Shown: positions 8,644 to 53,445 of the stretch, piece by piece
Position numbering within the stretch: position 1 is the first letter of the stretch
How the letters are laid out: every line of letters starts with the position of its first letter
Origin: Felis catus
Lineage: Eukaryota
DNA: 64,000 nt
NCBI RefSeq assembly: GCF_018350175.1
Contig: NC_058368.1
Location: forward strand, 19,284,001-19,348,000
Direction of reading: 5' to 3'
Position numbers and translations under genes: made by a program
The notes under the pieces: generated by a model
What the model was told of the DNA's origin: nothing
Database searches by the model: none
The model's input: the letters and a program-made list of their open reading frames with translations, nothing else

Positions 8644-10013
8644 CTAGATGACTAACTTCTCCACACTGAGAGTACTCGTGGTTTCATCCTCTTCATTTGA
8701 CCCAAAATAGCCCGGGAGGTCCAGCATCCTCTGCTCAGCCTCAGTGAGGCCAAATGACGTATTATCATAGAAGGCAAACTCAGGGTGGGCTGGGAAACTC
8801 TGACACTTGTCTTTTCTACCCTGAGAAGGGCTCAGGGGGCTGACCCTCTGGTAGCTGTCTTTGGGGGCAGTGGGGGAAGGCTGCTTCCTTGAGACACTCC
8901 TGTGACTGGGGGACGGTCCCCTCCGAGATCTGTGAGGCTCTGTTCTCTCGCCTCCTACCACGAAGCTTGCCTGGCTGTCCCCCAGGTCTGGTTTCCTCAC
9001 GGGCTGCCCCAGGGTGTAGGACTTAGGGGCAGGGCTCAACGGACCTCTGGTTGCACCCGCCCCTTCCGGTTTCTCGGGAAACGGGGCGGCGCCTCGACTG
9101 TGAGGCCGAAATCTGTCTTCCGCCTGGTCCCAGGTCCGCGTCCTAGAACTGTAGGCCGGGGCCTGGCGTGGAGTCAGCGTGGACATGCTCCTCTCCCGGA
9201 ACGGCCGGGCCTGCTTGGCTTCGTGAAAACTAGCGGTCCTCCTGAAGTGGGAGCCCCTGGGGTGGCTCCTCTCCGGCAGCGCCCCTCTGCCGCCCACGTG
9301 CCTCGTGGCTGACTTGCGGATCACCGTCTGGCTGGGGCTGACGGCGCAACCGGCCTGACACGCCGGGTGGTCGGGCCTGGAGGGGGGCCTGGCCGCGGCC
9401 CCGCCCGCCGGCTGCTCCAGAAACGGGGATTTGATCCGGAACTTGTTTGCCGCGGCTTCGTCTGGGCTTTCCACGTCTAAGGGGGGCACGGCGGCGGCGT
9501 CGATGGCCGTGTCTGTCAGGGGACTCTGAGACACGTGGTACACCTTGGTGGTTTCCGTCAGGCCCTTCTTCTTCATCTCCTTCAGCTGCTGCTGGGCCAG
9601 GCGGTAGCTGAACAGCGGGGGGATGATCTTCTGGGCGTTGGACTGCACGCTCTCGCTGCCAGAGGCGTCGTCCTCGGGAGCCGCGGGCACACTGCGCCTG
9701 TAGGTCAGGGGGATGCCCGCGTCCCCCGGGCCCCCCGCGGGCCCGTCGCCCCCGTCCGAGAAGCTGCCGCGCTGCTCGCTCAGCTCGCAGATGTTCTCCT
9801 CGTCCGAGTTCTTCCGGAAGCTGGGGGAGTGGATGGAGTTGTGTCGAGCCGGCGTGCGGCACTTCGGGGTGCGGCCGAACTTCCGCCACAGCGTGATGAG
9901 GACGGTGGCGAGGATGATGAACAAGCACAGGGAAATCCCCGTGACGGTCACGATGTTGTTGGACTTCACCGGACCCTGGGGCTGAAGAGGGGATGCACTG
10001 GATGGCTGGAAAG
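8644..10013 (-). CDS. THSD1: THSD1 last coding exon (exon 5): juxtamembrane linker, transmembrane helix IVTVTGISLCLFIILATVLITLW, long cytoplasmic tail, TAG stop
   Basis: Translation matches recalled THSD1 C-terminus (…PEFAFYDNTSFGLTEAEQRMLDLPGYFGSNEEDETTSTLSVEKLVI*). Acceptor cttgtag|CTTTCC at 10014/10013, phase 1, 1370 nt. Confidence 0.97.
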
Positions 10014-10553
10014 CTACAAGACAAGGGAGAGCAAATGTATTCTCTGGTATTGATTCTCTGCGTGGTTTTAAGGTTCTGATGATCTAGCAGTTCTAGAAAA
10101 AAACGTAAAATAAACAAGGACTGGGATTTCGGGGCTTAACACACGTGTCTCTGCTGGCAGCTTAAACCAAACCAAACAAACAAACAAACAAACCCCAAAC
10201 AAAAAACAAAAACAATAACGACAACAACAACAACAAAACAAACAAAAAACACCAAGGCACACGGAAATGAGGTGAGCAGATAAACCACAATCAGGGGTGA
10301 CTTCGGGGCTCACTGGCTCCTGCTAACACGTGTCTCAAATGTTCCACATAGAAAGCAGCAGCATAAGGAAAGTGTCAGGGTAAGATCAAGATACGGTGAA
10401 CGCGGGATATCTATAGTTAAATGTACCTTTGAGATGCACATCAGAAAATTCCTATCAAGTATTAAAACCTGACATGCAAAATGATTCAGGCAGGTTGTAT
10501 CTCAGTTCGCATATCTGAAGAAATTAATAGGTGAAAATAAGTCTTTTGGCAAT

Positions 10554-17012: not shown

Positions 17013-17171
17013 CAGCACACTCCTCCAGGGAACACAGGGAGGTCTCCGAGGACATTCCAGGGCAGCCAGGTCTGGAGGGGAAGGAAGTCAGGCACACGCG
17101 GCGTCGCTCTCTGACACCATCCCCACACGTGGCACTACACTGGCTCCACGGCTGCCACAGTCCCCAAGTTT
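17013..17171 (-). CDS. THSD1: THSD1 exon 4: thrombospondin type-1 repeat (WGLWQPWSQCSATCGDGVRERRRVC…C…C…C)
   Basis: TSP1 signature WxxWxxWSxCSxTCGxG..R.R.C; acceptor ttgcag|AA, donor G|gtaggt; 159 nt, phase 1-1. Confidence 0.97.
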
Positions 17172-28319: not shown

Positions 28320-28490
28320 ATGCACAGCAGCTAAGGTTTATTGGAAGCACCTGGTCCCTATATGCCAGGCACAACGCGGACAACTGTGCACATGTATTTC
28401 ACTGAATTCTCACAACTCTGAGGCAGAAACCCTTATTATCCCTGTTTTACTAATGGGGAAACTGAGACCTAGAGAGGTAAGCAGGGAGCT
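28320..28490 (-). mobile_element. MIR
   Basis: ttattatccctgttttactaatggggaaactgagacctagagagg. Confidence 0.75.
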
Positions 28491-28667
28491 GGGTCTGCCT
28501 ATCATTACTCCTAGTTTTTCAGATAAGGATGGACGATGCCATTTGCGACATTATGAGAAGGGAACCATAACAACGATGGCACAGCTCACCTAAATTCAAA
28601 ATAATAATTTTGACCGCATGAATGCACCAGTTTGGTTAAAAATTTTTTGAAATCTCAATACCAACCC

Positions 28668-28783
28668 GGGGGCCTAGGCGGCCCTTTCGGTTAAGCAACG
28701 GACTTCAGCTCAGGTCATGATCTTGTGGTTTGTGAGTTCAAGCCCCACATCAGGCTCCGTGCTGACAGTGCAGAGCCTGCTTG

Positions 28784-28831
<48 letters not shown>

Positions 28832-28895
28832 CCTGCCCCTCCGCACCTTACGCACGCGTGCTCTCTCTCAAAATAAATAAAGAAACTTAAAAACA
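28668..28895 (+). mobile_element. SINEC abutting the THSD1 exon 3 donor
   Basis: 17-bp TSD aaatctcaatac(c/g)aacc; long (CT)n. Confidence 0.92.
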
Positions 28896-28911
28896 AAATC
28901 TCAATACGAAC

Positions 28912-29877
28912 CTATGTTTCTCTGGATTAGCACGCACTCTCTCTCCTTTGTGGAAAAATGGCTTCTGCTTGAAACGCCGAAGTCAAAGCAGTATTTATTC
29001 CTCCCCATGTCAAACAAAGTGCAGTTGAATACTGTTCTCCTCTCTCCCAAGGTCAGGCTGTTTTCAGCCAGCCGGATGGTCCCTTCCCCAGGGCGTCTGG
29101 GGGCCTCCTTGAAGACCCCGATCACTCCCTGGACGAAGACGCACGGGGGAGGCAGCACCATCACCTCCACTGCCGACTCACACGTGAGTTCCGGCACCGT
29201 CACCAGTTTGTATCCAAATTTCTGGGCCAGGTCAATGGGTCCCGTGGAGGTAATGACCGAGTCTTGGCCGAGCAGCTTCAGCACCACAGTGACGTAGGCT
29301 TCCGGCCCCACGGGTGCACAGCCAAACTCAACCCACTGACCTTGAGAGAGTTGTGTCCTCTTGCTGGTTCTTATCTCCAGCGGCTGTCCTGGACTCGTTC
29401 TTGCCTCGGGAAGACTGTTGGTAAAGATGACATCCACCAAGATGTCAGGTTGGTCCGCAGGGAATGAGCACAGTGGTTGACTGGTAAAAAGGCCCACCTG
29501 GAAGGTGCCTTCTGCTGCCCCGGATGTCCTATTCAGGTCAACATGAAAGACAGGCCATTCCACCTTGAGAAAGGCACTTTGCTCCCACAGGTGGACTGGA
29601 GTGCTGTTGTCTGCCGCTTCCGGAGTCATGGTGAACCAGTAGTCCCCTGCCTCCTTGAAGTAGAAGCATTCGAACTCCAGTGTTCCCCGGGACTGGTTGG
29701 TCAGGAGGTATTTGGTGGTAACAGTCTGATTGGTGTTGGCCTCCAACAACAGGATAGATACATTCCTCAGCGTCCCATTAGCCCCACTGACATACTGGAA
29801 ACCCACCGATACTGTATTGTTGCTTAGTGCTACATGGCCGGCCTTTCCCAAGAGGAGGTATTCAGCTTCTGCAAGAA
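28912..29877 (-). CDS. THSD1: THSD1 exon 3: large extracellular region
   Basis: Open frame (V)LAEAEYLLLGKAGHVALSNNTVSVGFQY…CVLIQRNI; acceptor tttcag|TT, donor ATAG|gttcgt; 966 nt, phase 1-1. Confidence 0.96.
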
Positions 29878-34190: not shown

Positions 34191-34248
34191 CATAGTCACA
34201 AAGTACCACCAAGAGTAGATTTGAAAAGTCTTTCAACATTTGTTTCAT
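34191..34248 (-). CDS. THSD1: THSD1 exon 2 coding part: start codon and signal peptide MKQMLKDFSNLLLVVLCDY; whole exon probably 34191-34342
   Basis: Read directly from the reverse complement; donor TATG|gtgagt; acceptor tttcag|GTG at 34343/34342; 58 coding nt give phase 1, matching exon 3. Confidence 0.95.
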
Positions 34249-53000: not shown

Positions 53001-53222
53001 GAGAGAGAGGAAGGGGGGAAAAAAGGTCCAGATAAAAAACAGAGGAAGGAAATAGGGCCAGGAAACCAGAAAGCAGGCCACCACCGTTTTTAATAATGCA
53101 TCAACACAGAAGAAAAGTGGGCTCTGTGGAAAAAGACCAGCTACCCGACACTAGGCCTTCCTCTGAAAGGGCAGCAAAACTAATTTAACGTAAAAAATAG
53201 TACTAATTTAACGTAAAAAATA

Positions 53223-53445
53223 GGCGCCTGGATGGCTCAGTCAGTTAAGCATCTGACTTCGGCTCAGGTCGTGATCTCATGGTTTCTGAATCAAGCCCTG
53301 CATCAGGCTCTGCGCTGACAGTGCGGAGCCTGCTTGGGATTCTCTCTCCCTCTCTCTCTGCCCCTTCCCTGCTCACACTCTCTCTAAATGAGTAATAAGC
53401 TTTACAAATAAAAAGAGCTGTTTCAAAAAAAAAAAAAAGAAAAGA
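53223..53445 (+). mobile_element. SINEC
   Basis: tRNA head, CT body, A tail. Confidence 0.88.

Follow-up and report, generated by a model that had tools for sequence, protein, structure and literature searches.

A full-length CanSINE in intron 3 of domestic-cat THSD1 lies between two copies of the exon 3 splice donor. The copy in use, as judged from the listed felid proteins, is the weaker-pairing one, whereas the unused copy is the ancestral, better-pairing one, which reverses the naive expectation. The explanation we favor, with a probability of about 0.6, is that the insertion was tolerated, that the proximal donor is aided by the U-rich tail of the element and TIA proteins, that the +4 base of this donor drifted, and that the distal copy is a near-silent decoy. 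Within this explanation we infer the orthology of the hyena site (from one ORF), the help from TIA proteins, the relaxed selection and the near silence of the distal copy.

The CanSINE and its target-site duplication

The window, by which we mean the whole stretch of 64,000 nucleotides that was analyzed, carries domestic-cat THSD1 on its minus strand, with the first coding exon ending at 34191 and the last exon starting at 10013. The translation of the large coding exon is identical with Felis catus XP_019681378.2 and XP_003980402.2 (320/320 residues), and it shows 98-99% identity with other felids and 93-94% with hyenas and the meerkat. Residues A11, G118 and V314 of this translation set Felis catus apart from all other listed felids. 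The features are listed below, with a slash at the exon-intron junction of each donor or donor-like site.

28912..29877, minus strand: large coding exon of THSD1 (exon 3 in the earlier numbering), 966 nt, phase 1 at both ends
28896..28912, minus strand: copy 1 of the target-site duplication (TSD), the working proximal donor TAG/GTTCGTAT, +4 C derived
28901..28903, minus strand: in-frame stop (TGA), intron +9 to +11, predating the SINE
28867..28900, minus strand: U-rich tract (+12 to +45 from the proximal donor), candidate TIA1/TIAL1 site, largely antisense SINE A-tail
28668..28895, plus strand (antisense to THSD1): full-length CanSINE with tRNA-related head, (CT)n and A-rich tail
28650..28666, minus strand: TSD copy 2, the distal donor-like site CGG/GTTGGTAT, ancestral +4 G kept
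28582..28592, minus strand: second strong donor-like site TAG/GTGAGC (28590), U1 duplex -9.5 kcal/mol, host intron DNA
17013..17171, minus strand: exon 4 (TSP1 domain), alternatively skipped

The element, which we take to be a CanSINE by family name, is 228 bp long and sits antisense at position +17 of intron 3. Its (CT)n tract, (CT)21, occupies 28787-28829, and its A-rich tail lies at 28870-28895 on the plus strand. It shares 68-80% identity with other SINE copies within the window, and it is by comparison with these window copies that it shows the features of the family (tRNA-related head, (CT)n and AATAAA/A tail). The head diverges by 15.8% (11.5% outside CpG) from the consensus of seven other window copies of mixed age, a level that fits an old element as far as such a consensus can indicate.

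A sequence-only reading of this stretch had described a SINE with a 17-bp TSD across the exon 3 junction, and the duplication is found there as described. The two 17-mers (28650-28666 and 28896-28912) are identical at 16 of 17 positions, and the match ends at both edges; a fixed position would show 16 or more matches by chance with a probability of 7e-9, and the window contains no further site within three mismatches of the 17-mer. The duplicated span runs from -1 to +16, namely one exonic base and intron positions +1 to +16. The two copies put the exon end at 28912 and 28666, respectively, and the same reading was right that they are spaced 246 nt apart and that the single mismatch (28662 C and 28908 G on the plus strand) falls at donor position +4. 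One additional C (28667) stands between the TSD and the SINE head, and the -3 and -2 bases of the distal copy derive from the SINE junction. The L1 endonuclease prefers a consensus like 5'-TTTT/AA, and the bottom strand at the insertion site, GATTT/CAAAA, fits it loosely. Of the hallmarks of L1-driven insertion (TPRT), these are present: a direct repeat in the range of about 7-20 bp, an A-rich 3' tail and, in outgroups, an empty site with one copy of the target. Elsewhere in the window, a perfect 23-bp tandem duplication (53179-53223) lies immediately before the head of another CanSINE.

Ancestral donor base, empty site and age of the insertion

Gene-caller ORFs on genomic contigs translate exon 3 through to the first intronic stop, so that the donor bases can be read from them. 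Among 269 gathered proteins, 44 read G-x-Y past the junction (40 GWY, 3 GLY and 1 GSY), a count from which five further proteins with non-standard endings (P0001, P0007, P0051, P0163 and P0221) were left out. The 40 GWY ORFs do not stand for 40 independent lineages, about 14 being ruminant-like and about 6 horseshoe-bat-like; two of them are closest to dog, two to bear, four to mustelids and one to hyena. The three GLY ORFs are bird-like, with about 52% identity. Because the tryptophan in GWY fixes positions +3 to +5 as TGG, the ancestral +4 base is G, as in the distal copy. The ancestral base had been left for orthologs to decide, and 40 of the 44 read-through ORFs thus give G. On these translations, the +4 C of the proximal donor is the derived state, and the distal copy keeps the ancestral base. 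The lone GSY ORF, P0148, is cat-like, and its 99.6% identity to cat speaks against an error of assembly in the window; among felids, the +4 base was read in cat alone.

The empty site is seen in ruminant-like ORFs that lack the early stop, whose tails run from the donor into the flank that lies behind the distal copy in cat. The tail of P0192 aligns with this flank at a score of 64 (next best, 15 among 11690 intron positions), and five other ruminant-like ORFs give scores of 42-50 vs. 17. At the protein level, the ruminant-like site is therefore an empty site with one copy of the 17-mer; a species lacking the SINE and yet carrying both 17-mers would have spoken against a duplication by the SINE, and the ruminant-like site is not of this kind. 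The tails of P0008 and P0012, the latter truncated, mapped to neither flank and were excluded from the empty-site evidence.

The hyena-like ORF P0195 ends in GWYQDIIFKFTYLF followed by a stop, with +4 still G. Over 12 residues, its tail agrees with cat at 8 when set against the proximal flank, SINE tail included (score 39, with 21 the next best), and at 3 when set against the distal flank; the sharing by hyena is thus read from one ORF and 12 codons of low-complexity tail. As a further caveat, repeated insertions at one site are documented for CanSINEs; published dates place the feliform CanSINE subfamily I at about 50 MYA and the node joining Felidae and Prionodontidae at about 35 MYA (PMC4084570). 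It is probable from these alignments that a single insertion predates the cat-hyena split and is feliform-ancestral, older than about 35 My. Because the hyena-like site is filled and has G at +4, the insertion would have come first, and the G>C change in the proximal donor later, on the cat branch.

The THSD1 element resembles the feliform subfamilies I and II in being a feliform CanSINE with a TSD, and sharing by hyena would group it with feliform-ancestral insertions of subfamily I age; however, neither of the published diagnostic motifs (PMC4084570), TCCTGAT for subfamily I and GGCTCGG for subfamily II, is seen in its alignment with the other copies. The last 95 codons of exon 3, used as a protein query for short feliform ORFs, returned no candidate, and an exact look-up of two read-through ORFs of the window in the protein collection matched 0 of 2.

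Three states can be compared: the site is empty in dog-, bear- and ruminant-like sequences, occupied by the SINE with the ancestral +4 base in the hyena-like one, and occupied with a weakened working donor in cat. The locus offers a dated natural experiment in splice-site choice, with two copies of one donor.

Donor strength and the choice of the proximal copy

Donor strength was taken as U1 duplex energy with pseudouridine treated as U, a measure that differs from MaxEntScan scoring. The proximal donor has an energy of -6.9 kcal/mol, which becomes -8.3 with G at +4; the distal copy has -9.2, and the donor of exon 4 has -10.7. Intron 3 contains 660 GT sites; 5 of them pair at least as well as the distal copy and 19 at least as well as the proximal donor. 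Both donors had been called weak from the sequence; this is half right, since on the same measure the distal copy is among the best 5 and the proximal donor among the best 19 of the 660. The proximal donor keeps 8 of 11 Watson-Crick matches to U1, those at +5 to +8 included.

The site TAG/GTGAGC lies 76 nt beyond the distal copy and pairs better with U1 than either TSD copy. The ruminant-like ORFs P0189 and P0192 end FEFR-stop in the register of this site. If that ending reflects the same bases, the site apparently predates the SINE and stood 76 nt from the donor before the insertion. A similarly strong decoy at 28590 that seems to be older than the SINE suggests that strong neighbors of the THSD1 exon 3 donor are tolerated. 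Cryptic donors inside the SINE at +60 and +65 were set aside for their poor U1 pairing (-5.1 and -5.7).

The sequence behind the proximal donor is U-rich. The fraction of U is 0.65 at +12 to +45 of this donor vs. 0.35 behind the distal copy, and a fraction of at least 0.65 occurs at 331 of 11661 intron 3 positions (top 2.8%). A weak donor with a U tract no more than about 20 nt away is the arrangement expected of a TIA-assisted 5' splice site. In work on Alu exons, a polypyrimidine tract acting through TIA1/TIAR enhances an upstream 5' splice site despite a stronger downstream one, from 18 nt away, and a downstream site that is strong enough wins despite the tract (PMC2766253). The two systems are alike in having a weak upstream 5' splice site, a U tract of retroelement origin less than about 20 nt away and a stronger downstream 5' splice site. 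They differ in that the tract described in that source is internal to Alu exons and was studied in minigenes, whereas in THSD1 it is a CanSINE tail behind a constitutive donor of the host, with putative TIA binding.

The favored course of events is as follows. In a feliform ancestor, a CanSINE mobilized by L1 would have landed in antisense orientation 16 nt inside intron 3 of THSD1, copying the donor core in its TSD. The insertion would have been tolerated as the proximal copy, which directly adjoins the exon, stayed the one chosen. The antisense A-tail would have placed a U-rich tract just behind this donor, in the layout that lets a weak 5' splice site prevail, through TIA proteins, over a stronger one further downstream. 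Aided by the tract and by ordinary exon definition, the proximal donor could then lose its +4 G to C by drift in the cat lineage. The distal copy would be a mostly silent decoy, and the rare transcripts that use it would carry a premature stop and be removed by NMD. Several points count against this course of events: the distal copy has the better U1 pairing (-9.2 vs. -6.9), a sufficiently strong downstream site can override such a tract (PMC2766253), a similar insertion in MLH1 abolished the original donor (PMC7767547), and +4 also differs in the bird-like ORFs (GLY).

The +4 G>C change may also be plain drift without help from the tail. The corresponding account, in which the proximal donor wins by exon definition alone and the U tract is inert, is a reasonable alternative, although we hold it rather unlikely. 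It is consistent with the U1 matches retained by the proximal donor, with the tolerance of another +4 base in the bird-like ORFs, and with hyena, which has the SINE tail and yet kept G at +4. Exon 3 is moreover already 966 nt long, and an exon of 1212 nt would presumably be harder to define. On the other side, +3 to +5 is TGG in all 40 non-cat mammal-like ORFs, and the sole change seen is in an insertion-bearing lineage; the +4 change is one event, however, and so counts weakly against drift alone. A further reading is that the SINE tail has been exapted as an intronic splicing enhancer, that it made a donor position conserved in mammals dispensable, and that the distal copy serves as an NMD switch when TIA runs low, as it might in stress. 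We think this doubtful; if it were true, cats would need both the insertion and active TIA to splice THSD1 correctly.

In annotated proteins the proximal donor is the one used: all 19 felid proteins listed, which come from 12 species, splice there (for the main felid cluster, 15 of 30 members are listed). When exon 3, ending at 28912, is spliced to the acceptor at 17171, the frame continues as QRNI-ETWG. After exon 3, 10 of the 19 go to ETWG (exon 4) and 9 to AFQP (exon 4 skipped). NMD isoforms are under-reported in protein catalogs, which makes these counts weak evidence on minor use of the distal copy. Word shares were 0.81-0.90 in the 14 top-ranked datasets that are RNA or guessed to be RNA vs. 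about 0.72 expected from the exon alone; they were not taken as evidence of donor use, since pre-mRNA or DNA carry-over explains them equally well.

The premature stop, and comparison with known insertions

The in-frame TGA had been predicted together with the ending QRNIGSY, and translation bears out both: reading through the proximal donor gives QRNIGSY and then TGA at 28903-28901. The read-through ORFs end right after Y in 24 of the 40 GWY cases. Dog-, bear- and mustelid-like ORFs are among these and stop at the same place, which indicates that the TGA predates the SINE. NMD generally acts on a stop more than 50-55 nt upstream of a junction. Here the TGA is 235 nt upstream of the distal junction, a position that agrees with what is expected of a poison exon or AS-NMD. 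All routes past the proximal donor run into this TGA. A frame-keeping mini-exon within the SINE was rejected, because all 31 of 31 cassettes from an AG inside the SINE to the distal donor contain a stop.

The sequence-only reading had proposed that use of the distal donor would exonize the SINE and yield an NMD substrate. The premature stop on distal use stands, whereas the 19 of 19 listed felid proteins take the proximal donor. Meaningful, regulated use of the distal donor, by which THSD1 dose would be tuned through NMD, seems improbable to us. In its favor, the distal copy retains the ancestral core, its U1 pairing is one of the 5 best among the 660 GT sites, and just one of the 17 TSD bases differs after a long time; with the SINE head some 12-16% away from the local consensus, however, a single mismatch is compatible with neutral decay. 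As regards conservation across species, the distal copy lies past the stops of the read-through ORFs. Among 24 matches of 177-566 aa and the listed cluster members, there is no named felid protein that ends in GSY. In human, chimeric ESTs are reported for 11.7% of SINEs less than 100 bp from an exon vs. 1.6% of those further away (PMC3088655), and truncation of THSD1 leads to vascular disease, including aneurysm and fetal hydrops (PMC12189160). Conditional use of the distal copy, if it occurs, would make it a determinant of THSD1 dose.

A secreted ectodomain had also been suggested, and this part finds no support. It would end in QRNIGSY and come from a distal-donor or read-through transcript that escapes NMD. 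A signal peptide and the ectodomain do lie upstream of the stop, and there is an AATAAA at 28342 in gene sense. However, the stop is far past the 50-55 nt limit, it is older than the SINE, and the hyena-like ORF ends differently; a TM-less isoform, X3, is already annotated by another route. We regard such a product as very improbable.

Duplication of a donor by a TSD is already known. An AluSx-like element is reported at MLH1 c.588+8_588+9 in intron 7, with a TSD from c.583 to c.588+8 (PMC7767547). As in THSD1, a SINE lies a few bases into the intron, and its TSD has placed a second donor on the other side of the element. In contrast, the MLH1 insertion is a germline disease allele of a patient in which the original donor is abolished and transcripts end in the Alu poly(A), and use of the copied donor is not demonstrated in that report; the THSD1 SINE is antisense and old, and its original donor still works. 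The donor core is inside the TSD in THSD1 as in the MLH1 type, whereas the loss of the original donor is not seen (19/19 listed felid proteins use it). The THSD1 insertion thus works like a tolerated MLH1-type insertion without the original-donor loss that defines the type. Because a similar insertion causes human MLH1 disease, the THSD1 case can show why some are harmless.

The Merle SINEC_Cf in dog PMEL is likewise an antisense CanSINE at an exon-intron boundary with a competing splice site, and its oligo(dT) is reported to matter (PMC6091007). As described there, it is at an acceptor, polymorphic and in frame, with a phenotype, whereas the THSD1 SINE is at a donor and old, with a stop in every SINE-including route tested. 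More generally, SINEs are depleted within 100 bp of exons (PMC3088655), and polymorphic Alus less than 100 bp from exons altered splicing at 5 of 23 loci (PMC6326789). Our literature search, which covered open-access papers without their supplements, found no published report of the THSD1 intron 3 insertion; one paper on THSD1 in a feline context only places the gene in a homozygosity island. As it stands, the insertion is a tidy example of known processes.

Several further observations concern the annotated THSD1 isoforms. RefSeq isoform X3 (681 aa), present in cat, leopard, Geoffroy's cat and jaguarundi, enters the last exon through an acceptor at 10092, 79 nt upstream of the main one at 10013, by which the frame is shifted and the transmembrane segment lost. 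As the frameshift is in the last exon, this isoform should escape NMD, and it is a likelier source of soluble THSD1. Skipping of the TSP1 exon is annotated across mammals, exon 3 being joined to the last exon in 105 of 269 proteins and to exon 4 in 94 of 269. Annotations of Mustela and Equus hold additional "THSD1-like" or truncated entries (P0001, P0163, P0225, P0212 and P0221), some of them going from exon 3 into different downstream sequence. These additional entries may be lineage-specific duplicates.
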